A stretch of DNA of 64,000 bases from an uncultured Gammaproteobacteria bacterium (lineage in GTDB: Bacteria > Patescibacteriota > Patescibacteriia > UBA9934 > CAZDDW01), in NCBI GenBank assembly GCA_964504365.1, contig CAZDDW010000004.1, positions 14,214 through 78,213 of the forward strand, written 5' to 3'. Positions 2,467 through 39,966 of this stretch are shown one piece after another. Position 1 is the first letter of the stretch. Every line of letters begins with the position of its first letter. Below the pieces are notes generated by a model. The model saw nothing but the letters and a program-made list of their open reading frames with translations. It did not search any database and was not told where the DNA came from. The position numbers and the translations under genes were made by a program.

Positions 2467-2472
2467 GTATTT

Positions 2473-3339
2473 ATGAGCGTAAAAACCGCCATAATTCCTG
2501 TGGCTGGAATGGGAACCAGAATGCTCCCGGCAACCAAGGCCCAGCCCAAAGAAATGATAACCGTGGTAGACAAGCCGGTTATTCAATATATCGTTGAGGA
2601 AGCGGTTGATGCCGGAATTGAAAATATTGTCTTTGTGACAGCAATTGGGAAGCGGGCAATTGAGGACCATTTTGACCGAAACTTCGAACTCGAATATCGA
2701 TTGGAACAAAAAAAGAAAGTTGAGGCACTAAAAGAAGTTGCTGCCATTGGCAAATTAGCCAACTTCTCTTTTGTTCGCCAAAACAAACCGCTTGGTGATG
2801 GGCATGCAGTTTTAACTGCTGTGCCTTTTGTTGATCGGCACGAGCCAGTGGCTGTGCTTTTCGGTGACGATATTATTGATGCCAAGAAACCAGGTATTAA
2901 GCAACTGATCGATGTGTACAACCGATATGGTGATCCGGTAATCATGGTTACTGCCCTGCCAAAGAAAGAGGTTTCTAAGTACGGCGTGATCGACGGAACA
3001 GAGCTTGATGATAGGACATGGGAAATTAAGCGTTTTGTTGAAAAACCCGCACCAGAAAAAGCACCTTCAAATCTGGCTGTAATCGGGCGCTATGTGCTCA
3101 CTCCGGACTATCTTGAAGAACAGTTAATCAATGCCAAGCCAGGGAAGGACGGGGAGATTCGATTAGCTAATGGTTTTGTCGACCGGCTAAAAGCCAAGAA
3201 ACCGGTCTATGCCGGTGTCTTAGACGGTGCTTGGCGACAGTGTGGAGACAAGCTGAACATTATTAAAACCTCGGTTGAGCTTGGCCTGAAAGACCCTGAC
3301 ATCAAAAAAGAACTCAAAAAATACTTGAAGTCCTTATAA
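2473..3339 (+). CDS. galU: UTP--glucose-1-phosphate uridylyltransferase
   Basis: N-terminal AIIPVAGMGTRMLPATKAQPKEMITVVDKPVIQYIVEEA matches the GalU nucleotide-binding signature; length 288 aa. Confidence 0.9.
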   Translation: MSVKTAIIPVAGMGTRMLPATKAQPKEMITVVDKPVIQYIVEEAVDAGIENIVFVTAIGKRAIEDHFDRNFELEYRLEQKKKVEALKEVAAIGKLANFSFVRQNKPLGDGHAVLTAVPFVDRHEPVAVLFGDDIIDAKKPGIKQLIDVYNRYGDPVIMVTALPKKEVSKYGVIDGTELDDRTWEIKRFVEKPAPEKAPSNLAVIGRYVLTPDYLEEQLINAKPGKDGEIRLANGFVDRLKAKKPVYAGVLDGAWRQCGDKLNIIKTSVELGLKDPDIKKELKKYLKSL

Positions 3340-3341
3340 AT

Positions 3342-4736
3342 ATGAAAACAAAAATAATAGGTATTGCTCTGCTCTTGGTTCTGCTGGCTGGCACAGGCCT
3401 GGGTTGCCGCGGCGGTAGCAGCGAAGCCCAGCAAGCAGCTTTAGAAAACGTCACTCTTTATTACTGGCGAGTGTTTGATGATGACGATGATCTTGACGGG
3501 ATTATCAGTGAATATAGAAAATTACATCCAAATGTATCTATCAGGGTGGTTAAAAAACGTTTTGAAGAATTTGAAGAAGAATTGGTTCAAGCCTTTGCCG
3601 AAGACCGTGGCCCGGACATGTTCTCGATTCACAACACCTGGATCGGCCAATATGAACCACTAATCACACCAATGCCTGATTCTGTAGAATTGGTATATCA
3701 TGAGGTCCAAGGAACACTAAAACAGGAGGTTGTTGCGGTTATTCGTGAAAACGATTTAATGAGCCTTGGGGAGTTAGACGATGATTTTGTTGAGGTTGTT
3801 TACGATGATGTGGTTCGTACATACAAAGCCAGCTCATCCAGCAAGAGTGAGAATAGAATCTGGGCTCTTCCATATTCAGTAGACACTTTGACCTTGTTCT
3901 ACAACCAAGACTTGCTTGACGCGGCTGGAATTGCTGAGCCACCATCAAACTGGGAAGATTTCCAGGAGCATGTTCAAAAAATAACCTTGTTGGATCTGGA
4001 GGGTGACATAGTTCAATCAGGAGCAGCCCTAGGCACCACGGAAAACGTTGAACGCGCCTTTGATATTGTTTCTTTGTTAATGATGCAGAACGGCACTCAA
4101 ATGACCACTGATTCAGGATCAGAGGCCACCTTTGCTGAAGCTCCGGAAGGGTCATCAAGCCGGGTTTCTCCAGCCATATCAGCAATCGAGTTCTACACTG
4201 ACTTTGCCAATCCAATAAAAGTTGTTTATTCGTGGAATGAAAATCAACCAAGTTCCTTTGATGCTTTTGCTAATGGTACTGCCGCCTTTTTCTTGGGCTA
4301 CTCTTACCATATCCCAATGTTGCGCGCCCAATCACCAAAACTTAATTTCGACACCGCACCAGTACCCCAACTATCACAAAGCAAAACTGTGAATTATGCC
4401 AACTACTGGGTTGAAGTGGTTTCAAAGAACTCCGAAGACTCAGATTATGCTTGGGACTTTATTAACTTCGCTGCCAGCGCAGAACAAGTTGATTCATACT
4501 TGAGTCGAGCAGACAAGCCAACCGCTCTGCGTGGTTTAATCAGCACCCAACTCGATGACTTAGACCTTTCTGTTTTTGCCAGCCAGGTCTTAACTGCTGA
4601 AAGTTGGTACCGTGGTGATGATGCTTCTGTGGTTGAAGAAGCAATTCTGGATTATGTTGATGACTACTTGTCTGGTATTGAGAGTCCGGAAAGAGAACTG
4701 GGCGTGGCCCAAAGTAAAGTTAATCAAACCTTATGA
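3342..4736 (+). CDS. extracellular solute-binding lipoprotein (ABC-transporter SBP family 1-like), orphan (no adjacent permease/ATPase)
   Basis: signal peptide with Cys (LLAGTGLGC), overall SBP-like length and motifs (YYWRVF..., HNTWIGQY...); no transporter partners in window. Confidence 0.55.
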   Translation: MKTKIIGIALLLVLLAGTGLGCRGGSSEAQQAALENVTLYYWRVFDDDDDLDGIISEYRKLHPNVSIRVVKKRFEEFEEELVQAFAEDRGPDMFSIHNTWIGQYEPLITPMPDSVELVYHEVQGTLKQEVVAVIRENDLMSLGELDDDFVEVVYDDVVRTYKASSSSKSENRIWALPYSVDTLTLFYNQDLLDAAGIAEPPSNWEDFQEHVQKITLLDLEGDIVQSGAALGTTENVERAFDIVSLLMMQNGTQMTTDSGSEATFAEAPEGSSSRVSPAISAIEFYTDFANPIKVVYSWNENQPSSFDAFANGTAAFFLGYSYHIPMLRAQSPKLNFDTAPVPQLSQSKTVNYANYWVEVVSKNSEDSDYAWDFINFAASAEQVDSYLSRADKPTALRGLISTQLDDLDLSVFASQVLTAESWYRGDDASVVEEAILDYVDDYLSGIESPERELGVAQSKVNQTL

Positions 4737-5365
4737 AAAAAGTACTACTAATTGTATTCTTGTTACTAACACCTTCTGTGGCCTTGGCAGCAGACCCTCG
4801 TTGTGCAAGTCTTGTTAGTTGGGAAGAAGCTGGGTTGCTTATGGCAAACATTTGTGAAGAGTGTTGGACCCAAGGCAATTGCCAGCTTGAAGACATTCTA
4901 CAGGTCTTTGCAAATGTTTCTATGTATATTCTAACTATTGTTGGAAGCTTGGCCTTGCTTTTATTTGTTATCGGTGGCTTTTATTGGCTAATCGCCTCTG
5001 GGTCCAGTGACAGAATCACAAAGGGTAAAAAATATATGACTGGGGCAACTGTTGGCTTATTAATTGTTTTCGTTGCATACCTTGGCGTACAAACACTGGC
5101 CACAGCTCTGCAAACCGGGGAGCTTGTAGGAACCTCTGATTTTGACGTTTGTAGTGGTGCTAATGATGGAGTGTCATGTGCCACGCGCAGTCAATGCTAC
5201 CAAGGTATGTGTGTTTCAATTTGTGGTGCCAATTCAGAAATGGCTAGTTCATGTTTTGATCCAGAAAATATTCCAACTGGTATAACCAGCTGCGGCTCCG
5301 GAGCAACCTCTTGTCCTAATGAAGAATATCAGTGCTGTGTTGTTTACACTCCGCCATCAACATAA
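4733..5365 (+). CDS. TrbC/VirB2-like type IV secretion pilin paralog 1 with C-terminal Cys-rich extension
   Basis: signal peptide, then hydrophobic helix-loop-helix with motif IGGFYWLIASGSS shared with the next four ORFs; extra about 75 aa C-terminal domain with many Cys. Confidence 0.6.
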   Translation: MKKVLLIVFLLLTPSVALAADPRCASLVSWEEAGLLMANICEECWTQGNCQLEDILQVFANVSMYILTIVGSLALLLFVIGGFYWLIASGSSDRITKGKKYMTGATVGLLIVFVAYLGVQTLATALQTGELVGTSDFDVCSGANDGVSCATRSQCYQGMCVSICGANSEMASSCFDPENIPTGITSCGSGATSCPNEEYQCCVVYTPPST

Positions 5366-5381
5366 TAGTAATACTTAGAAT

Positions 5382-5717
5382 ATGAAAATAACAAAATACA
5401 TTCTACCTACCGCATTCATGTTTTTCTTGGCAACGCCAACCTTGGCTGTGACACTGTTTGATCCTTTAGGCGGTGCTTCTATACCTGAATTAATTGGTCG
5501 AGTGATTAAGGCGGCGCTTGGACTAAGCGGATCAGTGGCTTTGCTAATGTTTATTTATGGCGGCTTTCGCTGGCTTACTTCAGGCGGAAACAGCAAGAGT
5601 ATCGACGCGGGAAAACAAACTATTACTTGGGCAATTCTTGGTCTAATTATTATTTTTGCCTCTTACCTTATCGTAGACCTTATTATCCGAGCCATTACTT
5701 CTGGAACCACAACTTAA
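5382..5717 (+). CDS. TrbC/VirB2-like pilin paralog 2
   Basis: signal peptide + LLMFIYGGFRWLTSGGNSKS loop + second TM helix; 111 aa. Confidence 0.65.
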   Translation: MKITKYILPTAFMFFLATPTLAVTLFDPLGGASIPELIGRVIKAALGLSGSVALLMFIYGGFRWLTSGGNSKSIDAGKQTITWAILGLIIIFASYLIVDLIIRAITSGTTT

Positions 5718-5796
5718 ATAAGGCTTGTGGATAGTGTTTAGGCTTAATTGTGATATACTTTACTTAAATTAATAAGTTAATTAAATCAATTTATCT

Positions 5797-6231
5797 ATGA
5801 TAAATAAACTAATCGCTTCTGTTGTCGGTCTATCTCTTTGTTTGAGCTTTGCTTTGCCAGCAGTTCCGGCTTTTGCTCAGGACCCAGATCCAGACGAAGA
5901 TGATGCGGACTACATTACTGCAACCGAGCTTTTACAGGCAGGAGATGAGGGGACTATTGGTCAGGTTGCTGGTCTTGGTGAAGAGGACCTAACAGCAGTT
6001 GTTGCCAGAATCATCCGTGCCATTCTCGGATTCCTGGGTATTGTGGCTGTGATAATTATCCTTTGGGGTGGATTCCTTTGGATGACTTCAGGGGGTAGCG
6101 ATGAAAAAGTGGGCAAGGCCCGCAAGTTCATCATTATGGGTATTATCGGTCTAGCTATTGTTCTTGCTGCTTACGCTATTGCTAGTTTCGTTATTACTGC
6201 TCTTGTTGGTGCGGTTACACCGACGGTTTAG
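5797..6231 (+). CDS. TrbC/VirB2-like pilin paralog 3
   Basis: signal peptide (AFA-QD), acidic spacer, IILWGGFLWMTSGGSDEK loop, second TM helix. Confidence 0.65.
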   Translation: MINKLIASVVGLSLCLSFALPAVPAFAQDPDPDEDDADYITATELLQAGDEGTIGQVAGLGEEDLTAVVARIIRAILGFLGIVAVIIILWGGFLWMTSGGSDEKVGKARKFIIMGIIGLAIVLAAYAIASFVITALVGAVTPTV

Positions 6232-6300
6232 TTATAGAAAAATGCCCCTGCCAATGCAGGGGCATAACGTGAGTTGATCTGCCAAAGGTCATTTCACGTT

Positions 6301-6678
6301 ATGCAAAGACTTATTTTAATCATAGCCGCTGCTGTATTGATTCTGTTTCCAGTTTTAACCATGGCTCAAATCGATCCTTCAGCAACTGGTTTGGTTGAAA
6401 CCGCCCAAGAGGCCGGATATGTTGAAGCAGACAATCCACCAACATTAACAGGATTCATTGCAACACTTGTCAACGTGGTTCTTGGTTTAACTGGTCTGGC
6501 TTTAGTGATTCTTTTGATCTATGGTGGAATTAGATGGATGACAGCCATGGGTAATGAAAAAACAGTAACTGCTGCAAAACAAATCATTACCAATAGTATT
6601 ATTGGAATAATCATTATCGTTGCTGCCTATGCTATTGCCAATTATATTATTGTCGCTCTGATTGAAGCAGCTACTTAA
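6301..6678 (+). CDS. TrbC/VirB2-like pilin paralog 4 (start taken at internal ATG 6301; ORF track begins 6274)
   Basis: MQRLILIIAAAVL signal peptide; LLIYGGIRWMTAMGNEK motif; second TM helix. Confidence 0.6.
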   Translation: MQRLILIIAAAVLILFPVLTMAQIDPSATGLVETAQEAGYVEADNPPTLTGFIATLVNVVLGLTGLALVILLIYGGIRWMTAMGNEKTVTAAKQIITNSIIGIIIIVAAYAIANYIIVALIEAAT

Positions 6679-6716
6679 ACTATAAATTAATAAATAGATA
6701 ATTAATTAATTCAACT

Positions 6717-7121
6717 ATGCGAAAACTAATCAAAGGCATCGCAGCCTTGGTTCCCCTCTACTACATCAAAGCCAGTTTGGTATTTGCTCAGGAGCAAGAT
6801 GTTGGTGAAGGATTGACCGGAGCTGAGGAACAACTCGGTGAAGTTGGAGGACAGGTTGAAGGAGGAGCTTTGGCTTCTCAGACCCTACCACAGCTGGTTG
6901 GTAACATTATCAACATTGCCCTGGGTATTCTTGGTATTATCCTGGTTATCCTGATTGTTTACGGAGGGATTCTCTGGATGATAGCTATGGGTGATGAGAA
7001 AAAGATTGACAAAGCCAAGGCTATTTTAACCAATGCTATTGTTGGTCTGGTAATCACAGTTGCTGCTTATGCCATTTCTAGCTACGTCATTTCTGCTTTG
7101 ATCACAGCTGCAACAGGCTAA
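6717..7121 (+). CDS. TrbC/VirB2-like pilin paralog 5
   Basis: signal peptide, LIVYGGILWMIAMGDEKK motif, second TM helix; near-identical architecture to paralog 4. Confidence 0.65.
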   Translation: MRKLIKGIAALVPLYYIKASLVFAQEQDVGEGLTGAEEQLGEVGGQVEGGALASQTLPQLVGNIINIALGILGIILVILIVYGGILWMIAMGDEKKIDKAKAILTNAIVGLVITVAAYAISSYVISALITAATG

Positions 7122-7183
7122 TCGATATTTCGGAAAAGAAAAGGGCGCACCGCGTGCAATCGCGATGCGCCTTTTGAGTTGCC

Positions 7184-7858
7184 TTAGCTCCCGATCAGGA
7201 CGGAGATGTCCATCGGGTCGTTGCCCTGGGGGAGGACCCTGACGAAGCGTCCAGAACGAAGCGTCCGGTACCGCGGAGGCTCATCCGGAGAGAGGCGCGG
7301 CAGCTCGACTAGTAGGTCGACGTAGATCGTGGCCGTGTAGCGCTTCGAACCGCGCTCGTAGGCGTCGTCGAAAACGACCGTGAACAGGCCCCCGTTGGGG
7401 ATCGGTGTCGGCAGGCCGACGTTGATGTCGTGCCCGAGATCGTTCCGGTAGACACCGGCCACACCAGCGTCCAGGAGGTGTCCGATACCCATCCCAACCG
7501 GCTTGCCGTAGTACACGGTGTAGCCGTAGGAGGGCGTGACCATGGCCAGCAGGGGCTGCTCGACCTGGGCCGGTTCACCTTCATGCAAACGGATGGTGAC
7601 CACCTCGTCGTCCGCACGCGGCGGTGCGCTCGGCTCGGCAACTCGCTCGAACTCCATCGTGGCCATGCGGGCCTCGGCGTCGACGTAGAGGTCGCTGTAG
7701 AACAGGATGGCGCACTTCTCGGCATTGCGCTTGCCAGCCAGGCCGTGTTCGGCACAGAAGGCGTCATCCGGCGTGGGAATGCCGGACATGTCCTGTGCTG
7801 TTGCGACCGGAGCCGCAATCAACACGATCAGTACGAAAATGATTCGAATCGTATCCAT
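7184..7858 (-). CDS. hypothetical secreted protein, GC-rich island 1
   Basis: long ORF in about 65% GC DNA; N-terminal signal peptide IIFVLIVLIAAPVATAQD; no recognisable domain. Confidence 0.5.
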   Translation of the reverse strand: MDTIRIIFVLIVLIAAPVATAQDMSGIPTPDDAFCAEHGLAGKRNAEKCAILFYSDLYVDAEARMATMEFERVAEPSAPPRADDEVVTIRLHEGEPAQVEQPLLAMVTPSYGYTVYYGKPVGMGIGHLLDAGVAGVYRNDLGHDINVGLPTPIPNGGLFTVVFDDAYERGSKRYTATIYVDLLVELPRLSPDEPPRYRTLRSGRFVRVLPQGNDPMDISVLIGS

Positions 7859-7860
7859 TT

Positions 7861-8502
7861 CTATTCCTCGAGCAGTTCTCCCAGGCTCCGCAGAGTCCGG
7901 GCGGTTTCGTGGTCTGTGGTTCGCAGTTCACCGTCTGTGTCCTGCAGCTCTTCGATCTCCCGATCGTGTGCATCGAGTCGCTGGAGCACTCCGCTGACGT
8001 CGGTCGGTTCGACCGACAGATGGACACTACCACCCTCTTCGACGTCAGGCGCCACATCCTCGCTGATGTAGATCCGGAAGATCTGCTCCCCAGGACTCAC
8101 ATCCTCACGCTCGACCCGCACTTCCTGGCCACCAAAGGCAGCACTGGTAGTGTAGGCGGCAGCGGATGGACCGGTCACACGTGTGCCCTGGGCGTTTCCG
8201 ACCATGGCACCATTGACCAGGACCTGACCGTTGACACCAACGATCGCTGACCCTTGGCTGAAGCTTGCATCCGAATTGACCGGATCCACATGACTGACGA
8301 ACTGGCAGTACTGCCACTCGCCGGTTTCCCGACAGAGCTCGGCCATCTGCGCGATGTTCGTTGCTGCCCCAGCGTCCTTGCCAACGAGCTGAGCCTCTTC
8401 CAAGACCAACTGACCTGTGTCATTGGCCCTGAGTTCCGCTCGGCTCAGGCAGCCTGTTACGGCGAGCACCAGGCTCACCAACATGATCAAATTCACTCTC
8501 AC
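7861..8502 (-). CDS. hypothetical lipoprotein, GC-rich island 1
   Basis: signal peptide with lipobox-like LAVTGC; 3-nt gap to downstream ORF (operon); no recognisable domain. Confidence 0.5.
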   Translation of the reverse strand: MRVNLIMLVSLVLAVTGCLSRAELRANDTGQLVLEEAQLVGKDAGAATNIAQMAELCRETGEWQYCQFVSHVDPVNSDASFSQGSAIVGVNGQVLVNGAMVGNAQGTRVTGPSAAAYTTSAAFGGQEVRVEREDVSPGEQIFRIYISEDVAPDVEEGGSVHLSVEPTDVSGVLQRLDAHDREIEELQDTDGELRTTDHETARTLRSLGELLEE

Positions 8503-8781: not shown

Positions 8782-11352
8782 CTATTCCAGACTGGCCTCG
8801 AGCCGCTCCAGATTGCTCCAGAACTGCTTGGCCTTGTCCGAACGCTCGGGCAAAGAACCCGTCTGTGTGGGGGAATCCGAGGCGACGGGGGTGTTGTCCT
8901 CGGTTTCGTTGTTGGTGGGATCGATCGTCTCGTCGACGTTCGCGTCCTTTTCCCTCTCTTCCAACCACTCTGCGTAGTCTTCCGAGGCCGTGTCGTAGGT
9001 CCAGTTGGCAGCCACGTAGATGTTGGCCAGGAGCGGGTAGAAAACCATGACGCAGACGAGGAGAATCAATGCAACTACACCAGCAACGGTTCCAGCGCCA
9101 CCTGCAACACCCTTTACCCAGGCATTGTCATCGTTGGAGAGCAGACCCCAGGCCAGACTGACCAAGGACCCCCCAAAGAAGAAACAAAGGACGATCAGGA
9201 CGATCAGACCAAGAACGAAGATGCTCCAATGGACATGAAGTCCTTTGAAGACTGCTCCGAACACGGACTTGGGCCCGTGCTCCTTGACCTTGGCTGTCAG
9301 CACCGCTGCACCAACATCATCGACCTCGAGATCCTTCGGGGTGCTCACCACCGGTGTACCGTTCCAGCGCACCTTCCACTTGCGACCCTGCTCGTCGACT
9401 GACAGCACTTTCGCGCCGCGTGGCAGACAAACCGTGCCCACACCTCGTGCGTCATCGCAGGGAACCAGGGTTCCTGCCGCCTGAGCCTTTGCTGCTGGCG
9501 ACTCACTGACCCAGACTCTGTCCTGGTAATCCGTCACCAGGAAAGCGCGCTCCTCGTCGCTCAGGCCGTACTGCGGCGTGTAGCCGAAGTTCGAAGCCGG
9601 AGTATTCGGAAGCATGGCGTAGATCGGAACCAGCGCAACCGCGCCACCGACCATGGCCACCCGAGCCATCACCGCGAAGAACCTGGCCGTTCCACGAGCC
9701 TGCTTGAAGGCGAAAATGGAACCATACCAGCTGTTCGGGTCTCGATCGACCCAACCAGAGGCAGCCACCGTGCTCGGCGCTGCGTAGAAGAAGAACAGGA
9801 AGGCGCTGGCCATTGCGACCATGCAGATGTGATCGTAGCCGAGAATCCAGTTATTGAACATCGCTGTCAGAATCAGCCCAGTCTCGACCAGGATGATCAA
9901 AGCAATGCCAATACCAGTGTTGCGAGCGTGTTTGCCTCGCTCCTGCTCCGACCCCAACTCACTGTCACCTGTCAGCTTTTCCAGCTGTACATAAGCCACC
10001 TGACCTAGCTTGGTGCTAACGTCAGCGACGTGAGCAGCCAGATCGATTCCGCCCTGGATCAAGTACCCCAAGGACCACGGAATTATGGCCATGAACAGAC
10101 CACCGAACGCGTTGGCGCCGATGGAGATCAGCGGATGAAGATCGGTTGCGAAGAGCAAGACGATCCCACTGACCCACATGGAAAAACCGATGACGAACAA
10201 GGCAATAAGGCCAAAGACCACGCTTCGACCGTCGCCTCGAGCGAACTGGACCAGCTTGTCGCCGGCACTGTCAGACGCACCTCGACTGAAATTGACCACC
10301 CGAGTCCAGATGTTCATCCGGTCGGCCACGTCTGCCACTCTTGCCGTGTTCAGCGACCCTTCAGGCTCGAGAAGACCACGGAAACTCTGGACCACCAGAC
10401 CGATGCGGTCAGGGTTGTCCACGCCGGTGTAGCGGCGCTGAATTCCGTCCTTGTCTCCATCTTTGCCAACCAAGTTCATTGTTGCCAAGTGGTCTTCGAT
10501 GGCCTTGATCACCTTTGCCGGCGCGGGCCTGTTCATGCCGTTGCGGATGAAGAAGGAGTCCTCATGACCACCATCATCACGCCACCTCAGCTCTTCTAGA
10601 ACCGCGTGCAACTTCGTGTGCGCATCTCTGGAGAGTTGCTCGAAGGCCGCCTTGACCTTCTTGCTCGGCTCAGGCAGGACACCCATGCAGTGAGGGCACG
10701 GCTGCAGGCTGAGCTGATTCATGGCCGTGTCGTAGTCGATGTAATCGACGGAGTGACCAAACTGCGGAGTATCCGGGATCTGAGGTGCGTTTCTGCCCCT
10801 CTTCGGTGCATTACGCTTCGACAGGAAGTCCATCACCTTGTTCGTGAGCAGACTCTCATCGATGTGCTCGTGCACGGCTGGGCAGGTGCAGGCAGCCTGA
10901 TCGTCTACGCGCACTGCGGTGTGTACGTAACGACCAAGATAGCCAAGCCCCTTGACCCGAGCCACCACCGGAACCAATCCAGTGAAGTCGTCAGGCAGGT
11001 CACCGATGTCCGAACCGACCAGCGCGTCGGCACCACCAGAAGAGATGGCCTCGAGCAGCCGGTTCAGCTTTTCCTCGGCCTGGATGCGCTCTTCCGCGCT
11101 AACGAACAGGTCGTCAGGCAACGGAAAGTCGATCGCGCTCCCAAGACCACGCACTCCCCAGCTAAGCCACTTCACGGCTGCCGGGTTTTTCTGCAGCTTC
11201 TCGAGCGCTTCCCCGAACATCGTGGAAGTCATTTTCTCGGAGCCGTCGCGAATTCCGTCCTCAAGGAAAGGCCAGATGGCCTGCCCAGCGAAACTAGTGA
11301 AGAATGTCACCAGCGGAGCAACCAGCCCCTTTACCATGTCGTTAGTAACCAT
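8782..11352 (-). CDS. large hypothetical polytopic membrane protein (856 aa), GC-rich island 1
   Basis: single long ORF in about 60-65% GC DNA; multiple predicted TM segments in the middle and C-terminal thirds, CxxC/CxHC pairs, acidic C-terminal tail; no recognisable family. Confidence 0.55.
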   Translation of the reverse strand: MVTNDMVKGLVAPLVTFFTSFAGQAIWPFLEDGIRDGSEKMTSTMFGEALEKLQKNPAAVKWLSWGVRGLGSAIDFPLPDDLFVSAEERIQAEEKLNRLLEAISSGGADALVGSDIGDLPDDFTGLVPVVARVKGLGYLGRYVHTAVRVDDQAACTCPAVHEHIDESLLTNKVMDFLSKRNAPKRGRNAPQIPDTPQFGHSVDYIDYDTAMNQLSLQPCPHCMGVLPEPSKKVKAAFEQLSRDAHTKLHAVLEELRWRDDGGHEDSFFIRNGMNRPAPAKVIKAIEDHLATMNLVGKDGDKDGIQRRYTGVDNPDRIGLVVQSFRGLLEPEGSLNTARVADVADRMNIWTRVVNFSRGASDSAGDKLVQFARGDGRSVVFGLIALFVIGFSMWVSGIVLLFATDLHPLISIGANAFGGLFMAIIPWSLGYLIQGGIDLAAHVADVSTKLGQVAYVQLEKLTGDSELGSEQERGKHARNTGIGIALIILVETGLILTAMFNNWILGYDHICMVAMASAFLFFFYAAPSTVAASGWVDRDPNSWYGSIFAFKQARGTARFFAVMARVAMVGGAVALVPIYAMLPNTPASNFGYTPQYGLSDEERAFLVTDYQDRVWVSESPAAKAQAAGTLVPCDDARGVGTVCLPRGAKVLSVDEQGRKWKVRWNGTPVVSTPKDLEVDDVGAAVLTAKVKEHGPKSVFGAVFKGLHVHWSIFVLGLIVLIVLCFFFGGSLVSLAWGLLSNDDNAWVKGVAGGAGTVAGVVALILLVCVMVFYPLLANIYVAANWTYDTASEDYAEWLEEREKDANVDETIDPTNNETEDNTPVASDSPTQTGSLPERSDKAKQFWSNLERLEASLE

Positions 11353-20599: not shown

Positions 20600-21970
20600 C
20601 TATGCAGCGTACAAACGTTGTTTGATCAGTTCCAGATCATGTTGTAACTTTTCATCTTCAGTAAGAATGTTAGAAATTTTGTCGTAAGCATGCATGGCTG
20701 TTGTATGATCACGTCCACCAAGCTCCTGTCCGATCTGCGGATAAGAACTCTTCATTTCTTCACGCATGATATACATAATAATCTGTCGTGGAAAAGCCAG
20801 TCTTTTTTCTCGACTCTTGCTAAGCACCTCATCAATAGCAATGTCATAATATGCAGCCACGGTTTGTATCAGTTGTTTTGGGGTAACGTTCTTACGATTC
20901 CGTGATGGTTGGAAACTAGCCAACATTGGTTTTACTGTTTCAATTGTTGGATCAATATTTTTGAACTGATGGAAAGCAATGATTTTATTTAAGGCACCCT
21001 CAAGCTCTCGGATATTTGACTGAACAACCGTGGCCATGTGGTGCAGAATTTCTCTGTCTAATAAATAGCTTTTATCTCTACTTTTAGCCTCAAGAATAGC
21101 AATTCTTGTTTCAAAATCAGGGGTTCCAATGTCAGTCATCATGCCCCACTCAAAACGTGACAATAAACGATTCTCAAGTGCAGGAATAGCTTTTGGCGGA
21201 CGATCTGAGGAAAGAACAATTTGCTTGTTTTCTTGGTGCAGGGCATTAAAGGTATGAAAGAATTCTTCCTGTGTTCCCTCTTTTCCAGTAAGAAACTGAA
21301 TGTCATCAACTAAAAGAATGTCTACGTTTCGATAGACATCCTTAAATTCCTTGGCGTGTCCTGTGCGCACAGCGTGAATAAAATCATTAGTGAATTTTTC
21401 ACAGGTAACATACAAAACACGGGTATTTGGATTTTGTTTGACTCGCTGGTGTCCAATAGCTTGTAGTAGATGGGTTTTTCCAAGCCCTACCCCACCATAA
21501 ATAAAGAGAGGATTGTATACATCGCCTGGTTGAGCAGAAACAGCCTGGGCAGCAGCATGGGCCAATTCGTTTTGTTTTCCAACAACAAACGAACTAAAAA
21601 TGTATTTTGGATTTAAAGAGACATCTTCATTGTTTTTGGTTGATGTTCCTTCGTTATTATCAACAAAACTAACTGGTTCAAAGGTTTCTTCTTCACTTGG
21701 AATAACTTGCGGGGCAGATTGTCTAGTTTCAACACGATAGATTACGGCTTTGACAGGAGTGTTGGCTAGATTCTGTAAAGAAACAAGAATGTCTTTGTGA
21801 TATTTCTTTTCTAACCAGGCTTTGGTAAAAGTATTAGGGACACCGACGGCTATTTCACCACCGTCCAACGATACAATAAAAGTATTTTTAAACCAGGTAG
21901 TAAAATTTGCTTTGCTTAGCTTCAATTCAAGCTCTCCAAGAGCAGCTTGCCAAAGTTCGTCGGTGTTCAT
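20600..21970 (-). CDS. dnaA: chromosomal replication initiator protein DnaA
   Basis: Walker A GGVGLGKTHLL, AAA+ box, C-terminal DNA-binding domain ...ISNILTEDEKLQHDLELI; 456 aa. Confidence 0.95.
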   Translation of the reverse strand: MNTDELWQAALGELELKLSKANFTTWFKNTFIVSLDGGEIAVGVPNTFTKAWLEKKYHKDILVSLQNLANTPVKAVIYRVETRQSAPQVIPSEEETFEPVSFVDNNEGTSTKNNEDVSLNPKYIFSSFVVGKQNELAHAAAQAVSAQPGDVYNPLFIYGGVGLGKTHLLQAIGHQRVKQNPNTRVLYVTCEKFTNDFIHAVRTGHAKEFKDVYRNVDILLVDDIQFLTGKEGTQEEFFHTFNALHQENKQIVLSSDRPPKAIPALENRLLSRFEWGMMTDIGTPDFETRIAILEAKSRDKSYLLDREILHHMATVVQSNIRELEGALNKIIAFHQFKNIDPTIETVKPMLASFQPSRNRKNVTPKQLIQTVAAYYDIAIDEVLSKSREKRLAFPRQIIMYIMREEMKSSYPQIGQELGGRDHTTAMHAYDKISNILTEDEKLQHDLELIKQRLYAA

Positions 21971-25559: not shown

Positions 25560-26732
25560 TCAGGGCACGAGAGAAGTGGCCTGCAAAGGCGGTTCTTCCG
25601 GCGTGGCCTGGTTGTCTTCCGGTTTGCTTTCGGGGTCGCCGGGGTAGGTCGCTTCCTCAGGGGCTGGTCGAGAAGAGACCTCGACCTTCCAGAGGTAGTC
25701 ATCCAGTCGCAGAGACAGTGTCCCTGGATTCACAGATGCTGGGTCAGCACGAGTGACCCACTGGAACTTCTTGCCCAAGCTAAGGACTCGCTCCATGTTT
25801 TCTCGGCTGTGATCACGTCCGATCATGCCTGAGAAACGCGGCTGTCGAGACAGCAGGACTAGCAACGTGTCGATTCCGAGGGGTCGGGCCAGCGGGTGTC
25901 CGTCTCGTGTCCAGAAGGCAGGCCAGACCGCAGCCGCGGCCACGAAGAAGTTGACGATGATCTCCACCTGCTCTTCGATCGAGTACCCATGCAAGGAGCT
26001 GGTCTTGCCAACCGCTTGCTTGATGTACTGGAACAAAGACATCAGGTTGTGCCTGTCTCTGGGAAGGCGTCCACGAGTTGCCTGGTCGAAGAAGATCTTG
26101 TTGAGCAGAGGGGAACGCGGGTCCCGGTTCAGCTCAAGAGCGGCCAGGTAGGCTGCTTTCTCAGCGCGATTCTTGAAGCGGTCCACACGGTGAGCCTGAG
26201 CCAGACGAAGTCGTGGGTCAAGCTTCTTGCGCTTGCCCTGCTGGCCGAAGATGGCGATCCGTTGCTTTACCGGCAGGTTCACTGTGGTGGTCACTGGAAA
26301 GGACCAACGACCACGCTGTTCACCATCGAGCATCTCACAGGCAGCCAGTCGATGCTGGCCGTCGTCCACGAGCATGCAGCAGGCGTCCATCAGTTTTTCC
26401 GGATCGTCCTCAACCATGCCGGTCAGGGTGTGGCGCACCTCGTCGTATTCCCAACTGTGAACATCGTCGCCAGAACGCACATCTCCAAGGATGGAATCGA
26501 GCATGACCCCGCCCTCTTCCTTTTCCATGTGCAAGGCAATGCCGATGGCGTGATTGTTGGTCAGAGCCCTGTTCACACCTTCCGGGTGTTCGCCAAAGCG
26601 CAGGACAACAGCGATCTTCATCAAGAGCTCAGCTGAGAGCACGAAGGTGTAAAGGACGGTCTCCTTCTGCATGAACCGAGTAACGTTTGGAATTTCCACT
26701 TTTTGAAGGGCCATGTTTCCTCCCAACAGCAC
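25560..26732 (-). CDS. DGQHR-motif (DndB-like) protein, GC-rich island 2
   Basis: motif LVDDGQHRLAA (the DGQHR signature of DndB/DpdB-like ParB-fold proteins); about 58% GC DNA; 390 aa with acidic/Pro-rich C-terminal tail. Confidence 0.7.
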   Translation of the reverse strand: MLLGGNMALQKVEIPNVTRFMQKETVLYTFVLSAELLMKIAVVLRFGEHPEGVNRALTNNHAIGIALHMEKEEGGVMLDSILGDVRSGDDVHSWEYDEVRHTLTGMVEDDPEKLMDACCMLVDDGQHRLAACEMLDGEQRGRWSFPVTTTVNLPVKQRIAIFGQQGKRKKLDPRLRLAQAHRVDRFKNRAEKAAYLAALELNRDPRSPLLNKIFFDQATRGRLPRDRHNLMSLFQYIKQAVGKTSSLHGYSIEEQVEIIVNFFVAAAAVWPAFWTRDGHPLARPLGIDTLLVLLSRQPRFSGMIGRDHSRENMERVLSLGKKFQWVTRADPASVNPGTLSLRLDDYLWKVEVSSRPAPEEATYPGDPESKPEDNQATPEEPPLQATSLVP

Positions 26733-26790
26733 CGGGCATCACCAGCGTGCCCACACTGAAGAGAATTAACTTAACAGAATAAGCTTATCC

Positions 26791-26830
26791 TGTCAAGTAA
26801 CTGTATAAAAAAAGACCCGAGATTCGGGTC
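26791..26830 (-). terminator. terminator hairpin GACCCGA/TCGGGTC + T7, followed by TTGACA-N17-TAAGTT promoter for the DGQHR gene
   Basis: minus strand ccacttGACCCGAatcTCGGGTCtttttttatacagttacTTGACAggataagcttattctgtTAAGTT. Confidence 0.55.
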
Positions 26831-27203
26831 AAGTGGAATTATCCTGTTGATCAAGGAACTGACGAAGACTGGCTTCATCAGAATGGTCTTGACGTAGCCG
26901 GTCAAGGAAGGAGCCCAGAGTATCGCCTTGCTTGGCGGTCTGTTGGTAAACTTCCAGTATACGAGGCAGGTGACGCTGCAAATCTCCAAGCGGCAGAAGC
27001 TTCTTGGGCTCTGGTTTGCCAACATCCAAAGCTCTTCGCACTTTGGCTGCGAGCCGCTTTTTTATCTCAGGCAGGCGGTCAAGGATTTCCAAAGTACTTT
27101 TGTCGTCCTTGTCCAGGAATTGGCAAAAGGTTCCAGGCTTTCCCGCATCTACCCAGTCTTCGAAAGATTGTTCGATGCGGGGTATGATCAGGTCAGCTAA
27201 CAA
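26829..27203 (-). CDS. hypothetical protein (124 aa), island 2
   Basis: GC-rich ORF, 11 nt downstream of previous ORF stop; no recognisable domain. Confidence 0.4.
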   Translation of the reverse strand: MLADLIIPRIEQSFEDWVDAGKPGTFCQFLDKDDKSTLEILDRLPEIKKRLAAKVRRALDVGKPEPKKLLPLGDLQRHLPRILEVYQQTAKQGDTLGSFLDRLRQDHSDEASLRQFLDQQDNST

Positions 27204-27213
27204 ATTCCACCTC

Positions 27214-27822
27214 TCAGGAGTCCAGCCAGGCCCTGAGCTCGGCTTCGGTTGGGTGGTCTGTGGCTATACGACTGAGGTAATTGTCGAAGCTTTCGTCAGG
27301 AGTTGCCTCTTCGGTGAACCTTGTTGTGATTTGTCCCAGATACTGCTGAAGCACACTGCTTGGAAGTTGTTCTGCTGCTGCCGGCTTTTCCGCAGGCATA
27401 CCACTTGAAGCAACGGTTCCAGGGCTGAGAATACCATCGACCTGCAGCTCCAGGCCGCTACTGTCGGTTTCTTTGATTCGGCCGGTAAGACCATGCTCAT
27501 CGAAACCAAGCACCGTTGACACCCGACCTGCTCCACGTATCTCCTGGTCATCGAACTTGATCCCCTTGATCAAGACACAGCCGCCACTGACCCCTTGGTC
27601 AAGTGCAACAACCAAGAACAGGAACGAGTTTCGCGAACGAGCTACGTACACCTCACCAGGTCGCATTTCCAGCACTGGTTTGTAGATACCAGTGTCGTTA
27701 TCGCTTCGGCGATAAGGAACGGTCTGGGTAATGGTCACCATTCGCCCGTCAGGCAAGGAAAGGGTCAGTCCACGCAAGGTTGTTACCAACTCTTGTACGT
27801 CTTGGGTAAAGATCGAGGTCAT
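27214..27822 (-). CDS. hypothetical protein (202 aa), island 2
   Basis: GC-rich ORF with own TTGACA-N17-TATGGT promoter downstream of helicase terminator; no recognisable domain. Confidence 0.45.
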   Translation of the reverse strand: MTSIFTQDVQELVTTLRGLTLSLPDGRMVTITQTVPYRRSDNDTGIYKPVLEMRPGEVYVARSRNSFLFLVVALDQGVSGGCVLIKGIKFDDQEIRGAGRVSTVLGFDEHGLTGRIKETDSSGLELQVDGILSPGTVASSGMPAEKPAAAEQLPSSVLQQYLGQITTRFTEEATPDESFDNYLSRIATDHPTEAELRAWLDS

Positions 27823-27925
27823 GACTTCATCTCCTTTATGAAGGTAATTACCATATCAGACAACAAAGAGGCTGTCAAACCATATCGTTTGTGTTTACTT
27901 ATTAAAAAAGAGGCACTCAAGTGCC

Positions 27926-30900
27926 TCAAGTTGTTAGAGCAATTGCCCCACGGCTGGCCAGCTTTTGCAAAGTGCGCCAATCATGAGCAAAAAGGTCTAG
28001 TGCAGCCTGGTCTGGCGTCAAAGGTCCTGTGTCCGGACGAGCACCCCATCGTTGGAATTCTCTAAGGATGGTCCTTTTAACTGCCTCGTTATCCAAGACA
28101 GTGCCAGATCGACTGGCTAGCGGGTTGACCACTTCGAAGTCGTTATAGACAACTGTGCTTTGGTTACCAGGCTCAGGTCCTTTTCCTTTGCCGTTACGAA
28201 CGTTGATGTTTCGGGCAAGCTCAAAGGTAAAACGGAAAGCCTCATGGTCTGTAAACCGCGGCTTGTTTCCGTTTAGCGAGAACAGAATGGACCAGAAAGC
28301 AAACTTGGGCTTTGTTTTGTGGCCCTCTCCCTTTGGTACGATCAGACCAGAAAGAGGTAGTACATCACAACCCTCGCTGCGTAAGGCACTTACCCAACAC
28401 TCATAAAGCGTTTCATCAAGAGCCTGTCGGTTAAAGGTCAACCAGATCAAGCCGTATGATTCAGTAACGCGGACGAGTTCACGTAGAATCCGAATGCGCT
28501 CTGGCTCTTGTTGGTCTGCTTCCAGATTGGTCCAATCAATAGCCAAAGAACTTACAGTCAATCGGAACCTGTCTGTCCAATCACTGGGTAGCTGAGAAAG
28601 GCGTCCAACCTCAGCATTAGTGCCTTGGTGTGGGGAAAGGGTTCTGCCAAGATCAACGATCGTTGGGTTGATGTCAATCCCGTAGATCGGTTGGTCAAGG
28701 TAGCGTTCCATGGTCAATGGGCCACAGCCAGCATCAAAGATCAGTTCTGGGCGATCCAGGATCCCTGCTGGGATCAATCCACTGGTTAGCGACCGGGTCA
28801 TGAAACGGGCTATGTGCCCGGAAGCTCCAAAGTCCTGAACTTGGACAAAGCTTCTGGCAAATATCTCCGCATTGGTCCGTATGCCAAACTCGGTTGACAG
28901 TCGACGAATGACGCCGTCCTCACCAGCACCGCGCATGTCAGAGGCGATGAGGTTGACATGGTCGGTTGGAGAGCGGGTTAGGCGCTTTAGTCGAGTACTG
29001 TTGGGAGTAGTGTATTCGTTCCACTCCTCTTCAGTCGGTGGAACACGAGCCCTGAAACGAACCAAGTGTTCCCACTTGCGCTTGACCAGCTCATAGCGAC
29101 TCTCATCAGCAGTATCAACAATGTTGTCGTCTCCGACAAGCACTAGTGACAAGTACTCCACAGGCACAGTCAGACCTTCTCTCCAGAAACGACCAAGGAA
29201 CTGTTTCCAAGGCAACCATCCCTGGGCATAGGCGATCACCTTTACCCCTTGGACAGTTGGGTCGTTTCTGACCAGGACAGACAGGTTGATGCTGTCCGGA
29301 CAGGTCTTCATAGAAACCAGCAGGATCCTGGCACGTGGGTCAGTTCGCCAGCGAGCGATCAAAGAATCTCTCGCGTGACTACCAACGCCAACACTGCCAT
29401 CGAGCAACAAAACAGCTTCGTCGCCGTACCACTCCTTCAAGAGCTTGCCAACCCACACCCCGTCATCATCACCTTTGTAGGGCTGGGTTACCCCCTGGAC
29501 ATAAACGCCGGTAGCAACCACCACCTTATGGTTGTGGAGGCATTCGTCTAGCTGTCTTTTTAGCCAGACAAGCTTGGTTGACAGTCGCCAGTCGCTGAAA
29601 CGCTCAGCCATCTCGTCAGGCCAGTCGTAGGCAGTGTTTCCAGTCAGCACGTGCGGCATGTCCGCTGCATGAAGCAGGTGACGCACCTTGGCACTGGCAT
29701 CGATTCCAATTCCGTTACCATTTCCATTCTCTTGCTCAAGGTCAGGTTCGTGATCCTGAACAAAGCGGTACAACTCAGCATGATCCGGATTCATTTCAAG
29801 TGGCACTGGCCCGAACAGGTCCTCCCACGGCTGTGGGTTGATTGTTGGCAGGTCGCGCACCTCTTGAAGTTCTATGTCCAGGATACAGGTCCCGAAGATG
29901 GCTCGGAGCAAGCGGGGGCTGGCAAACACACCAGAACTGACAAACCGTTCTGGGTCTGGGAACAGGTCTGGTCTCAAGATCGTGGCCAAAGCAGCGCACT
30001 CAACAGGAGAATTCTCCCAAGGAGTTACTGAAAGGGCCAAAACCTTTTTCAGACGTGCCTCAGCACCCTTAATGATCGTCAGACAAGCAAGGGCTCGTTG
30101 TGCCGCGCTTTTTCCAAGGACATTTTTTCCGTATTGACACTCATCCCAAATCACACCATCGAAAGCCAGTTTGCTAAGAGCACTGACAATTTCAGGCCTG
30201 GTAAGGTTTGAATAGCCAACAACGATAAATCTGGCATTCCTTGGAATAAAGGCAACATCACGAATGCCTCGAATTACATGTACCACACCAGGCCGCCTAG
30301 CCCAGGGGAAGTAAATCTTTAGCTCGTTTTCCCAGTTGTCTCGAGCGCCAGGCGCACAAAAGACCAGGGTCTGTTGACAGCCAGCCTGAAGAACGTCAAG
30401 GGCCGCGTAACTGGTTTTGTACGTACCAGTATCTCCAATGTTGAGAACTCGCGACTCGTCTTTGGAACGAGCCAGCCACCAGCGCACATGAAGAGCTGGG
30501 AACATCCGGCTGTTGATCGTTTCGATCGTGTCCGGATAGGTCGTGGTCAAAAGGGCTTCGATGCGTTCGTGAGCGATTTGCCACACCTTACGTTCGTAGT
30601 CGTTGTTTGCTGCGGCCCGCTCTTCTCTTACGAAGTCATGGCCCAAATCAACGTCACGACTGAACCAGTAAAGCAACTCGCGTATACGACAATCAACATC
30701 CAGATCCAGAACCTCGGTTGGAATTCCTTTGATGATTTCCGGGTCGATCACTACCTTGGCGCCTGAATCGGTGCGGTTGGTGTTGAGTGGTCGTACCGTA
30801 ACCACACCCAGATTGGCCCGAAGTTTCATGTCTGCTTGGAGCTTGAGCACCAGGCGCGTCATCCATTCCACGTCTCCGTAGAAGAATTCAGGACAAACAC

Positions 30901-31147
30901 GGACAATCGCGTGAGCCAGGGCTTCGGGGAATGCTTCGAACCGTTCCCAGATAAAACGAAGTAAATCGTTTTTGTTGATTTGCTCAGCAAACAACGACGA
31001 CTTGTTTTCTACAACCTCAGCCAAACACTGATCAAGGTCCTTATCAGTCAGGTCACCACGTTGGTGGAGGAAGCGCAGGAATTCGTACTTCTTCTCGTTC
31101 TCTGGCATTTTGGCTAGCAGCGATACTATTTGTTGATGACTAAGCAT
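27926..31147 (-). CDS. SNF2-family helicase/ATPase fused to C-terminal class-I SAM-dependent methyltransferase domain, island 2
   Basis: helicase motifs IGDTGTYKT (I), VIWDECQYGKN (II), ALSVTPWEN (III), LLVSMKTCPDSINL and QGWLPWKQFLGRFWREG (V/VI); MTase motif I LIFDAGCGPL and IYGIDINP; start set at ATG 31147 (GGAGAGG SD) since the ORF-track GTG at 31240 lies inside the terminator/-35 element. Confidence 0.7.
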   Translation of the reverse strand: MLSHQQIVSLLAKMPENEKKYEFLRFLHQRGDLTDKDLDQCLAEVVENKSSLFAEQINKNDLLRFIWERFEAFPEALAHAIVRVCPEFFYGDVEWMTRLVLKLQADMKLRANLGVVTVRPLNTNRTDSGAKVVIDPEIIKGIPTEVLDLDVDCRIRELLYWFSRDVDLGHDFVREERAAANNDYERKVWQIAHERIEALLTTTYPDTIETINSRMFPALHVRWWLARSKDESRVLNIGDTGTYKTSYAALDVLQAGCQQTLVFCAPGARDNWENELKIYFPWARRPGVVHVIRGIRDVAFIPRNARFIVVGYSNLTRPEIVSALSKLAFDGVIWDECQYGKNVLGKSAAQRALACLTIIKGAEARLKKVLALSVTPWENSPVECAALATILRPDLFPDPERFVSSGVFASPRLLRAIFGTCILDIELQEVRDLPTINPQPWEDLFGPVPLEMNPDHAELYRFVQDHEPDLEQENGNGNGIGIDASAKVRHLLHAADMPHVLTGNTAYDWPDEMAERFSDWRLSTKLVWLKRQLDECLHNHKVVVATGVYVQGVTQPYKGDDDGVWVGKLLKEWYGDEAVLLLDGSVGVGSHARDSLIARWRTDPRARILLVSMKTCPDSINLSVLVRNDPTVQGVKVIAYAQGWLPWKQFLGRFWREGLTVPVEYLSLVLVGDDNIVDTADESRYELVKRKWEHLVRFRARVPPTEEEWNEYTTPNSTRLKRLTRSPTDHVNLIASDMRGAGEDGVIRRLSTEFGIRTNAEIFARSFVQVQDFGASGHIARFMTRSLTSGLIPAGILDRPELIFDAGCGPLTMERYLDQPIYGIDINPTIVDLGRTLSPHQGTNAEVGRLSQLPSDWTDRFRLTVSSLAIDWTNLEADQQEPERIRILRELVRVTESYGLIWLTFNRQALDETLYECWVSALRSEGCDVLPLSGLIVPKGEGHKTKPKFAFWSILFSLNGNKPRFTDHEAFRFTFELARNINVRNGKGKGPEPGNQSTVVYNDFEVVNPLASRSGTVLDNEAVKRTILREFQRWGARPDTGPLTPDQAALDLFAHDWRTLQKLASRGAIALTT

Positions 31148-31224
31148 CAAACCTCTCCGTTCCTTGTATTGCACAAGAAAATATTGAAAAGACCAAGGGA
31201 CCTTTTTAACAGATATAAGCCAAA

Positions 31225-31258
31225 TTGTCAATAAAAACACCCATCCAAGTGGATGGGT
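31225..31258 (-). terminator. intrinsic terminator after sigma-factor gene (ACCCATCC/GGATGGGT + GTTTTTATTGACAA)
   Basis: minus strand ctctaaACCCATCCacttGGATGGGTgtttttattgacaa. Confidence 0.65.
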
Positions 31259-34587: not shown

Positions 34588-34656
34588 AGAGTGAAGTTAT
34601 GTATTAATTGATTTATAAGTTACAAGCGGTTAATATGATATTAGGAATAAGATCTT

Positions 34657-39959: not shown

Positions 39960-39966
39960 TGTTCGA

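Follow-up and report, generated by a model that had tools for sequence, protein, structure and literature searches.

Tandem arrays of VirB2-like pilin genes are a described feature of the Patescibacteria. A recent survey counted 441 such arrays of 2–11 genes in 383 patescibacterial assemblies, with an identity of 25% on average and 54% at most, and remarked on the origin-proximal position of type IV secretion system (T4SS) genes in these bacteria; pilin genes lay beside virB4 in 1135 of 1948 assemblies, and many others have their pilins away from virB4 (Quinonero-Coronel et al. 2025, PMC12102498). In Southlakia epibionticum, six genes of the family PF18895 (SEML1_0014–0019) are found inside an essential T4SS cluster (Wang et al. 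2023, PMC10633639). The function of the patescibacterial T4SS has been called "completely unknown" (PMC11665869). Here we analyze a stretch of 64,000 nucleotides from the chromosome of an uncultured Patescibacterium (contig CAZDDW010000004.1, positions 14,214 to 78,213; hereafter the window), in which five pilin genes in tandem, P1 to P5 (4733–7121, + strand), directly follow the gene of a solute-binding protein (SBP) lipoprotein.

The array shares with those of S. epibionticum ML1 and of the survey its membership in PF18895, a tandem arrangement of five to six genes, low identity between paralogues, an origin-proximal position and a monoderm phylum as host. Unlike the S. epibionticum array, which is located inside a T4SS cluster next to VirB4, PrgI and two VirB6-like proteins of roughly 1000 amino acids and has no SBP, it is joined in one gene run with a galU-like gene and the SBP gene, and its first pilin is rich in cysteine. 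Since arrays of this kind have been published for Patescibacteria, the array itself is a further member of a described feature and is unsurprising to specialists. Its coupling to an SBP lipoprotein, the galU–SBP–pilin synteny, the conserved order of the subunits and the Cys-rich first pilin appear to be undescribed. As to the linkage of SBP and pilin genes, the main text of the survey (PMC12102498) uses none of the terms "solute", "substrate-binding" and "ABC", and a full-text literature search combining Candidate Phyla Radiation, solute-binding protein and T4SS found no paper. A preliminary description of the window had missed both the array's precedent in the phylum and its coupling to the upstream SBP gene.

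SBP-superfamily lipoproteins encoded with, and working for, a monoderm T4SS are known in PrgZ/TraC of enterococcal conjugative plasmids. PrgZ/TraC belong to SBP family 5 (oligopeptide) and feed the chromosomal Opp permease for signaling, whereas the SBP of the window is of family 1 (carbohydrate type). We propose, with a probability of about 0.6, that the locus is a vertically inherited chromosomal pilin module, whose products form a T4SS-assembled surface structure with the SBP as a partner; we are least certain of the formation of a filament and of the function of the SBP.

Results

P1 (4733–5365; 210 amino acids), P2 (5382–5717; 111), P3 (5797–6231; 144), P4 (6301–6678; 125) and P5 (6717–7121; 134) are consecutive open reading frames (ORFs) in the same direction on the + strand and, by MAFFT alignment and hydropathy, follow one plan. 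An N-terminal hydrophobic, signal-like segment leads to an AxA-type site (ALA/A, AFA/Q, TMA/Q or VFA/Q, the slash marking the site) and is followed by a variable hydrophilic stretch, a long hydrophobic helix, a short Lys/Arg-rich loop, a second hydrophobic helix and a short Thr/Ala-rich tail. The first helix ends in the motif GG(F/I)xW(M/L)(T/I)(A/S)xG, with the variants GGFYWLIASG, GGFRWLTSGG, GGFLWMTSGG, GGIRWMTAMG and GGILWMIAMG. The preliminary description had reported five ORFs with a signal peptide, two hydrophobic helices and a motif loop, and our analysis agrees; of the motif that it gave, the GG(F/I)xW(L/M) core stands, and the Thr that it had held fixed is either T or I. Core identity between the paralogues is 27–55% in pairwise BLASTP (E from 5e-18 to 0.02), the 55% being that of P4 and P5, and the variable parts of the five proteins are their N- and C-terminal tails. 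P1 combines a signal peptide, an N-terminal ectodomain with 4 Cys, the hairpin and a Cys-rich C-terminal ectodomain; P2 is the shortest and nearly devoid of an ectodomain; P3, the most conserved, has an acidic N-terminal ectodomain (QDPDPDEDDADY...), and that of P5 is Gly/Glu-rich. For P4 we prefer the ATG at 6301, which is used by the public gene calls on identical contigs, and consider the longer TTG start at 6274, yielding 134 amino acids, less likely.

All five proteins pass the gathering cut-off (26.6 bits) of PF18895 (T4SS_pilin), with 27.4 bits for P1, 44.7 for P2, 37.7 for P3, 40.6 for P4 and 43.2 for P5. The match extends over the whole model, the conserved GGxxW and loop motif included, and is also precomputed for identical public proteins; on this profile evidence, P1–P5 are T4SS_pilin-family proteins. 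Together with the pairwise similarities, a match of all five to one model greatly exceeds what chance would produce. The TrbC/VirB2 model (PF04956, cut-off 27.9 bits) gives significant scores below its cut-off for P2 (23.7 bits, E = 6e-5) and P3 (25.5 bits, E = 2e-5). The initial designation as TrbC/VirB2-like pilins is therefore borne out for the T4SS_pilin family, and does not hold as strict membership in PF04956. In common with TrbC/VirB2 proteins of the T-pilus, RP4 and F-type systems, the five have a signal peptide, two hydrophobic helices, a basic loop and a Gly-rich/aromatic motif that closes helix 1; unlike in those diderm systems, the host lacks an outer membrane, no virB genes adjoin, and there are five paralogues with ectodomain fusions.

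A third profile points to another lineage. NF045849 (Mbov_0395, "pilin-like conjugal transfer protein" of Mycoplasma integrative and conjugative elements, ICEs) matches P2–P5 with 20.2–30.3 bits (E from 3.5e-4 to 2.5e-7; P3 30.2, P5 30.3), below its equivalog cut-off of 40 bits, over nearly the whole of its 80 positions; P1 has no match to it. The Mycoplasma proteins (Mbov_0395, MMCAP2_0565) and those of the window come from wall-poor or monoderm lineages with a T4SS of the mating-pair-formation (MPF) type FATA. The Mycoplasma genes are single-copy and located on mobile ICEs, in contrast to the chromosomal multi-copy array described here.

Could the profile matches reflect hydrophobic composition alone, the proteins being holins or unrelated two-transmembrane proteins? 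Short hydrophobic proteins do give spurious weak matches (DctQ, Apq12 and FixQ at E = 0.001–0.05), and the fold search is unable to tell helical hairpins apart. As a check for such an artefact, 59 diverse cores of the family from related genomes were scanned with the profiles: PF18895 was found in 59 of 59, NF045849 in 52 and TrbC in 17 (the latter two at E <= 0.01). Against NF045849 the relatives reached E-values down to 6e-11, and one relative scored 31.1 bits, again under the 40-bit cut-off. Holin models matched one of the 59 cores (Phage_holin_8, E = 1e-3) and none of the five window pilins. With a curated cut-off passed by all five over the full model, an independent pilin-like model matching most of the relatives and no phage context, a non-pilin identity is effectively refuted and retains next to no probability. 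The preliminary description had named a lack of profile support, or a resemblance to holins, as what would overturn its reading, and these results settle that point in favor of pilins.

Directly upstream of P1 lies the SBP gene (3342–4736, + strand), and upstream of this a galU-like gene for a UTP–glucose-1-phosphate uridylyltransferase (2473–3339, + strand). The SBP has a lipobox and scores 90.7 bits against SBP_bac_1 of Pfam (cut-off 26) and 84.1 bits against SBP_bac_8. Its nearest solved relatives are sugar-binding proteins, such as the trehalose/maltose-binding protein 1eu8 (E = 6e-14), and in 16 orthologues the lipobox Cys22 and Gly19 are invariant together with many aromatic and acidic residues typical of sugar-binding proteins. 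The galU-like protein matches NTP_transferase with 108.5 bits and TIGR01099 (galU) with E = 8e-95 and 317.3 bits, against a cut-off of 326.8. The TGA stop of the SBP gene overlaps the ATG of P1 by 4 nt (ATGA), so that the two genes are probably translationally coupled; only 2 nt separate galU and the SBP gene, and the galU-like gene is probably the first of the same transcription unit.

This arrangement is widespread. We compared 80 related loci, chosen by pilin similarity from the species representatives of GTDB, which together with the window make 81 sequences. An SBP orthologue is present in 75 of the 80 (E from 1e-86 to 1e-210 among the matches listed) and is far better conserved than the pilins. 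In 61 of 73 cluster members it is the gene directly upstream of the array and shares its strand; the median gap is 6 nt, and 15 loci have a gap of −4 nt. A galU homologue is found upstream on the same strand in 55 of the 81 sequences. Because these loci had been selected by pilin similarity, we ran the reciprocal test and searched with a profile built from 16 SBP orthologues. This yielded 80 metagenome contigs, 69 of which extend at least 500 nt downstream, and in 63 of the 69 a pilin ORF starts within 300 nt after the SBP gene. Where at least 5 kb of downstream sequence was available (30 loci), 18 loci have 3–11 pilin genes and 12 have a single one (L120, L121, L125, L127, L128, L133, L137, L138, L140, L153, L156 and L160); an SBP with one pilin may be the minimal or ancestral module. 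The pairing of SBP and pilin holds whichever of the two the loci are selected by, over about 130 independent contigs, and the outcome of the reciprocal test identifies the SBP–pilin pair as the conserved core of the locus.

The order of the pilins is conserved as well. An HMM (hidden Markov model) search of six-frame ORFs counted 3–14 tandem pilin genes in each of the 80 loci, five being the mode. Positional orthology was tabulated for 20 relatives: positions 1, 2 and 3 best match P1, P2 and P3 by wide margins in 19 of them, and position 1 is occupied by a P1 orthologue in all 20, L027 keeping P1 only. In the relative L007, for example, positions 1–3 score 144, 131 and 165 bits, against 57, 65 and 69 bits for the next-best paralogue, and its second gene is 69% identical to P2. 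Identity to the L007 orthologues is 56–84% in the cores, with P3 the highest (84%), and exceeds the identity between paralogues; in the ectodomains it is 28–57% for four of the five, the exception being the 10-residue ectodomain of P2 with 8 of 10 residues identical. Beyond position 3, the genes are P4-, P5- or P3-like with small margins, P4 being a weak positional orthologue, and it is these positions that carry the differences in copy number, up to 14 genes.

How do these patterns bear on the view that the paralogues are interchangeable, fast-diversifying surface variants for antigenic or host-range variation? The preliminary description had read the divergence in this way, and the 2025 survey offers the same interpretation (PMC12102498). 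The low identity between paralogues, the faster evolution of four of the five ectodomains relative to the cores, and the variable size of the array through its tail copies would all fit. Tandemly amplified, divergent VirB2 genes also occur in Bartonella, Anaplasma and Rickettsia, likewise host-dependent bacteria. Those arrays have been read as antigenic or host-range variants, whereas positions 1–3 of the present array are conserved orthologous slots, kept in identity and order in 19 of 20 relatives across several candidate phylum-level names. Orthologue scores of about twice those of the best paralogue indicate old, non-interchangeable subunits. Moreover, six public metagenome contigs with this locus (marine and other), from different samples, are 100% or 99.9% identical, with no hot-spot of variation in the array, and neither recombination repeats nor silent cassettes were seen. 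Given that core identity between orthologues exceeds that between paralogues, the divergence of the paralogues represents an old, fixed specialization; the positional orthology of P1–P3 shows them to be ancient, not freshly diversifying, and only the tail of the array expands. The divergence noted at the outset is thus real, and we consider it improbable that it reflects a repertoire of variants, an explanation that is partly compatible with our preferred one for the tail genes.

What distinguishes the first pilin? The C-terminal extension of P1 comprises 82 residues (about 129–210) with 10 Cys, in line with the additional Cys-rich domain of about 75 residues noted at first, and its N-terminal ectodomain adds 4 Cys. 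In an AlphaFold2 model, the hairpin (residues about 52–128) consists of helices 52–87 and 92–128, at a predicted local distance difference test score (pLDDT) of about 80, and small beta strands are placed in 150–205 at a pLDDT of 55–73. Eight Cys are invariant across six homologues, and the terminal CC is retained wherever the tail exists. In Uhrbacteria-like loci, the first pilin bears the same C-terminal 10-Cys domain; in other lineages it is the N-terminal part that is rich in Cys, with as many as 39. Among the 81 sequences, 52 first-position pilins have at least six Cys outside the hairpin, compared to 3–21 of the 65–81 pilins at each of positions 2–5. A Cys-rich ectodomain is hence a conserved hallmark of the first pilin in the array. 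Judged from sequence, the modules would be of the disulfide type, and their occurrence at either end of the hairpin fits the VirB2 topology, with both termini outside and the basic loop in the cytoplasm. No known domain could be assigned to the module: an exhaustive search of its profile against 1.84 billion representative proteins returned only nine matches, mostly P1-like pilins of roughly 200–225 amino acids, and one 1111-residue FG-GAP/STIG1-like repeat protein.

Several results weigh against a T4SS-assembled structure. As the preliminary description had noted for the T4SS ATPase/VirB4, Pfam searches found no VirB4, VirD4 or VirB6 domain in ORFs of at least 335 amino acids of the window; no T4SS ATPase, VirB6, PrgI or VirB1 was detected in its 64 kb, and the core (VirB4, VirB6, PrgI/VirB3) is not in the approximately 80 kb of this genome that are available. 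Within about 10 kb of the array, none of the 80 relatives has VirB4 or VirD4, the Walker-A ORFs of 450–1100 amino acids across these loci being FtsK, ClpB, SMC, FtsH and similar proteins only. Nine array-bearing relatives could be traced in Table S1 of the survey, and seven of them are VirB4-positive there; the two VirB4-negative metagenome-assembled genomes (MAGs) are both scaffold-level drafts (PMC12102498). With no T4SS gene near the array, the case for dependence on such a system is made by homology and by publications on a different class, the Saccharimonadia. At the level of the proteins, none of the five meets the cut-off of PF04956, which P1, P4 and P5 do not match at all, and HMM profiles of the five paralogues and of the 59 cores against all PDB sequences gave noise only (DotF, cytochrome oxidase, E > 0.3). 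The best pilin match of a Foldseek search, and the sole pilin among its top matches, is the archaeal Ced/Ted pilin 8dfu of Aeropyrum pernix at rank 7, which like the window pilins is a VirB2-like helical hairpin of an organism without an outer membrane; the match is not significant (E = 3.7; template-modeling score 0.59, target-normalized), and 8dfu has no sequence similarity to them. Reviews credit Patescibacteria only with the "potential to elaborate conjugative pili" (PMC12857230), and no filament has been visualized in any member of the group. Finally, the role that we ascribe to the SBP is inferred purely from gene linkage.

It is conceivable that the locus encodes a device independent of any T4SS, in which the two-transmembrane hairpins remain in the cytoplasmic membrane, serve the SBP as its membrane partner or anchor and together with it constitute a novel system for capture, uptake or sensing of sugars, and GalU activates the imported hexose. 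The SBP–pilin pair as a conserved core, with a single pilin in 12 of 30 SBP-selected loci, is in keeping with this idea, as are the sugar-binder residues and relatives of the SBP, the galU-like gene upstream in 55 sequences and the distance from any VirB4. An ABC permease or ATPase adjoining the SBP gene is likewise missing from the window, where the sole ABC gene is a fused gene of exporter type 37 kb away, and no permease cluster is among the frequent neighbors in the 80 loci. Nevertheless, the hairpins are homologous to VirB2-type and ICE pilin-like families and to no transporter family, and a two-helix hairpin is without precedent as an SBP-dependent translocator. In S. epibionticum, members of this family belong to a T4SS cluster and have no SBP with them, and most relatives that could be checked have VirB4. 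We therefore regard a T4SS-independent device as unlikely, and retain the T4SS-assembled structure as our working model.

The gap of 2 nt, the overlap of 4 nt, the short AT-rich spacers and a hairpin at 7144–7171 suggest a single operon of about 2470–7171. This hairpin, between P5 and a convergent GC-rich gene, resembles a bidirectional intrinsic terminator (11 bp with 9 G–C pairs, an A-run upstream and a T-run downstream) and likely marks the 3' end of the transcription unit. A second, GC-rich hairpin of 10 bp lies between P3 and P4 (6242–6265; ATGCCCCTGC-caat-GCAGGGGCAT) and has no U-tract on the + strand; judging from its sequence, it may act in RNA processing or stability or as a partial attenuator, and could modulate the ratio of P1–P3 to P4–P5. 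Matches to sigma-70-like promoters numbered 10, with 9.6 expected from shuffled sequence, and consequently no promoter is claimed. None of the five pilin genes is preceded by a recognizable Shine–Dalgarno sequence (e.g., in 5350–5382, 5718–5796 and 6679–6716), the spacers being AT-rich, as in TTAATAAATAGATAATTAATTAATTCAACT before P5; initiation in this lineage may be leader-independent or of another non-Shine–Dalgarno type.

The genome is that of a Patescibacterium of the class ABY1 (Uhrbacteria-like). Among its named homologues, P1 is closest to a "pilin" of Candidatus Uhrbacteria. The 80 related loci without exception stem from MAGs of Patescibacteria (Uhr-, Magasanik-, Falkow-, Kerfeld- and Buchananbacteria), and the nine loci whose class could be found in a published table are all ABY1. 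Many records of relative MAGs of roughly 1 Mb (L007, L009, L013 and L016 among others) are titled "uncultured Gammaproteobacteria bacterium", almost certainly because the submission series was mislabeled. The window belongs to the chromosome, and its array is 12–15 kb from dnaA and dnaN (dnaA, 20600–21970, at 13.5 kb). Cumulative GC skew is lowest near 35 kb, where two genes diverge (34587–34657; H+-pyrophosphatase on the − strand, RNase HII on the + strand); as this is about 13 kb from dnaA, the replication origin may not adjoin dnaA.

Might the array instead be the remnant of a mobile conjugative element, such as an ICE or a plasmid that inserted into the chromosome? In favor of this, the curated NCBIfam family closest to the pilins stems from Mycoplasma ICEs, and a block with atypical GC borders the array. 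Its own GC (0.39–0.47) and third-codon-position GC (GC3) are nonetheless typical of the genome, the same housekeeping neighborhood (galU, NifU/IscS, Pyr_redox, PBP1) recurs in dozens of genomes, relaxase, integrase and coupling protein are absent nearby, and a tblastn search with P3 against the 72,556 plasmids of PLSDB found no match. These observations make a mobile-element remnant very unlikely.

The GC-rich block begins 63 nt after P5, where GC rises to 0.58–0.63 from about 0.44, and contains three genes on the − strand, convergent to the array (7184–7858, 7861–8502 and 8782–11352), which encode a signal-peptide protein, a lipoprotein-like protein and a polytopic membrane protein of 856 amino acids. 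The description of the array as directly adjacent to a block encoding only exported or membrane proteins is accurate. GC3 in the block is 0.67–0.80, compared to 0.27–0.47 in the rest of the genome, at equal GC2 (second codon position); the difference is therefore one of synonymous codons, not of amino acid content. The three proteins have no Pfam, NCBIfam or PADLOC match and almost no homologues, the 856-residue protein having one in a database of 5.8 billion proteins and no phage match. Two VirB6-like proteins of roughly 1000 amino acids flank the S. epibionticum array, and the 856-residue protein was considered as a candidate VirB6-like partner of the pilins; neither Pfam, NCBIfam and PADLOC nor a seven-sequence profile against PDB gave anything relevant in support of a VirB6, and its AlphaFold2 model has a pLDDT of 35.

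In L007, L045, L047 and L048, the slot between the array and Pyr_redox is also GC-rich (0.60–0.69, against 0.45–0.57 in the flanks) and encodes a protein of 738–807 amino acids, whose similarity to the 856-residue protein is barely detectable. The slot proteins of the relatives share with it an architecture of an N-terminal soluble region of about 370–445 residues followed by 6–12 predicted hydrophobic segments. The recurrence of a GC-rich slot in these four relatives indicates a persistent, fast-evolving, GC3-rich locus rather than a one-off transfer; it may have arisen through GC-biased conversion at a recombination hot-spot or through repeated replacement. Further GC-rich blocks are found at 25560–31240, 38702–42244 and 52069–53316 (GC3 0.53–0.84), with only orphan ORFs of 202–1104 amino acids that have no significant Pfam or PADLOC match, DndB at 25 bits and DpdE at 13 bits being weak exceptions. 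The last of these blocks adjoins a tRNA-Arg(tct) gene (53527–53603) and a gene for a XerC/D-type integrase (53639–54595).

Just upstream of galU, a membrane protein of the Wzy_C family (O-antigen ligase/O-oligosaccharyltransferase) and a Polysacc_synt flippase are encoded (446–1684 of the window and upstream; 4294–5712 in L001), and synteny with the array extends to the Wzy_C gene in 17 relatives and to the flippase gene in 11. The C-terminal tails of the five pilins are rich in Thr, Ser and Ala (TSGTTT, AVTPTV, EAAT, AATG, TPPST), although Thr/Ser enrichment in the tails of the family is only 1.5–2-fold. O-glycosylation of the pilin C-termini by the Wzy_C-family protein is conceivable from these sequence features, and a weak idea.

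Discussion

In conjunction with the published work on Patescibacteria, we propose the following model for the module. The pilins would be exported by the Sec pathway, cleaved after the signal peptide and inserted into the membrane, where an MPF-FATA-like, monoderm-type T4SS encoded elsewhere in the genome would assemble them into a surface filament or a short conduit for the epibiont's contact with its host cell; pilus formation itself we infer from family homology and the literature. P2 and P3, the most conserved subunits, may form the bulk of the structure. P1 could be a specialized, low-copy subunit displaying a disulfide-stabilized knob at the tip, at the base or as an adaptor, and the P4- and P5-like genes would provide exchangeable, lineage-variable subunits. 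The SBP lipoprotein may serve as an assembly partner, most likely one that recognizes carbohydrates, binding a glycan of the host or of the cell itself, or capturing sugar at the contact site.

A bolder version of this model may be considered, in which SBP and pilins form one machine, the SBP docking on the Cys-rich ectodomain of P1 to recognize or harvest glycans or sugars of the host, or in which the hairpins are a new SBP-dependent channel without a T4SS; the GC3-rich block would then be a fast-evolving, host-specific accessory. We regard this as a long shot. If true, an SBP–pilin machine would mean an import-directed or receptor-guided use of T4SS pilins. If, on the other hand, the linkage of SBP and pilins is a matter of gene order only, the locus is no more than a usual example of a feature already described.

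What is the relevance of the matches to the Mycoplasma proteins? They bear on a question raised by the 2025 survey, namely whether patescibacterial pilins came with MPF-FATA-type machinery or were co-opted from diderm systems (PMC12102498).

The T4SS and its pilin array are essential in the only genetically tractable Patescibacterium, and the locus described here offers leads in a second large class, ABY1. It provides a candidate partner for the pilins in the form of a sugar-type binding lipoprotein, linked to the gene of an enzyme forming UDP-glucose, and a candidate class of ligands, carbohydrates, suggested by the nearest relatives of the SBP. It also provides a hierarchy of subunits that can be put to the test, with P1 as a Cys-rich adaptor, P2 and P3 as a conserved core, and a variable tail.

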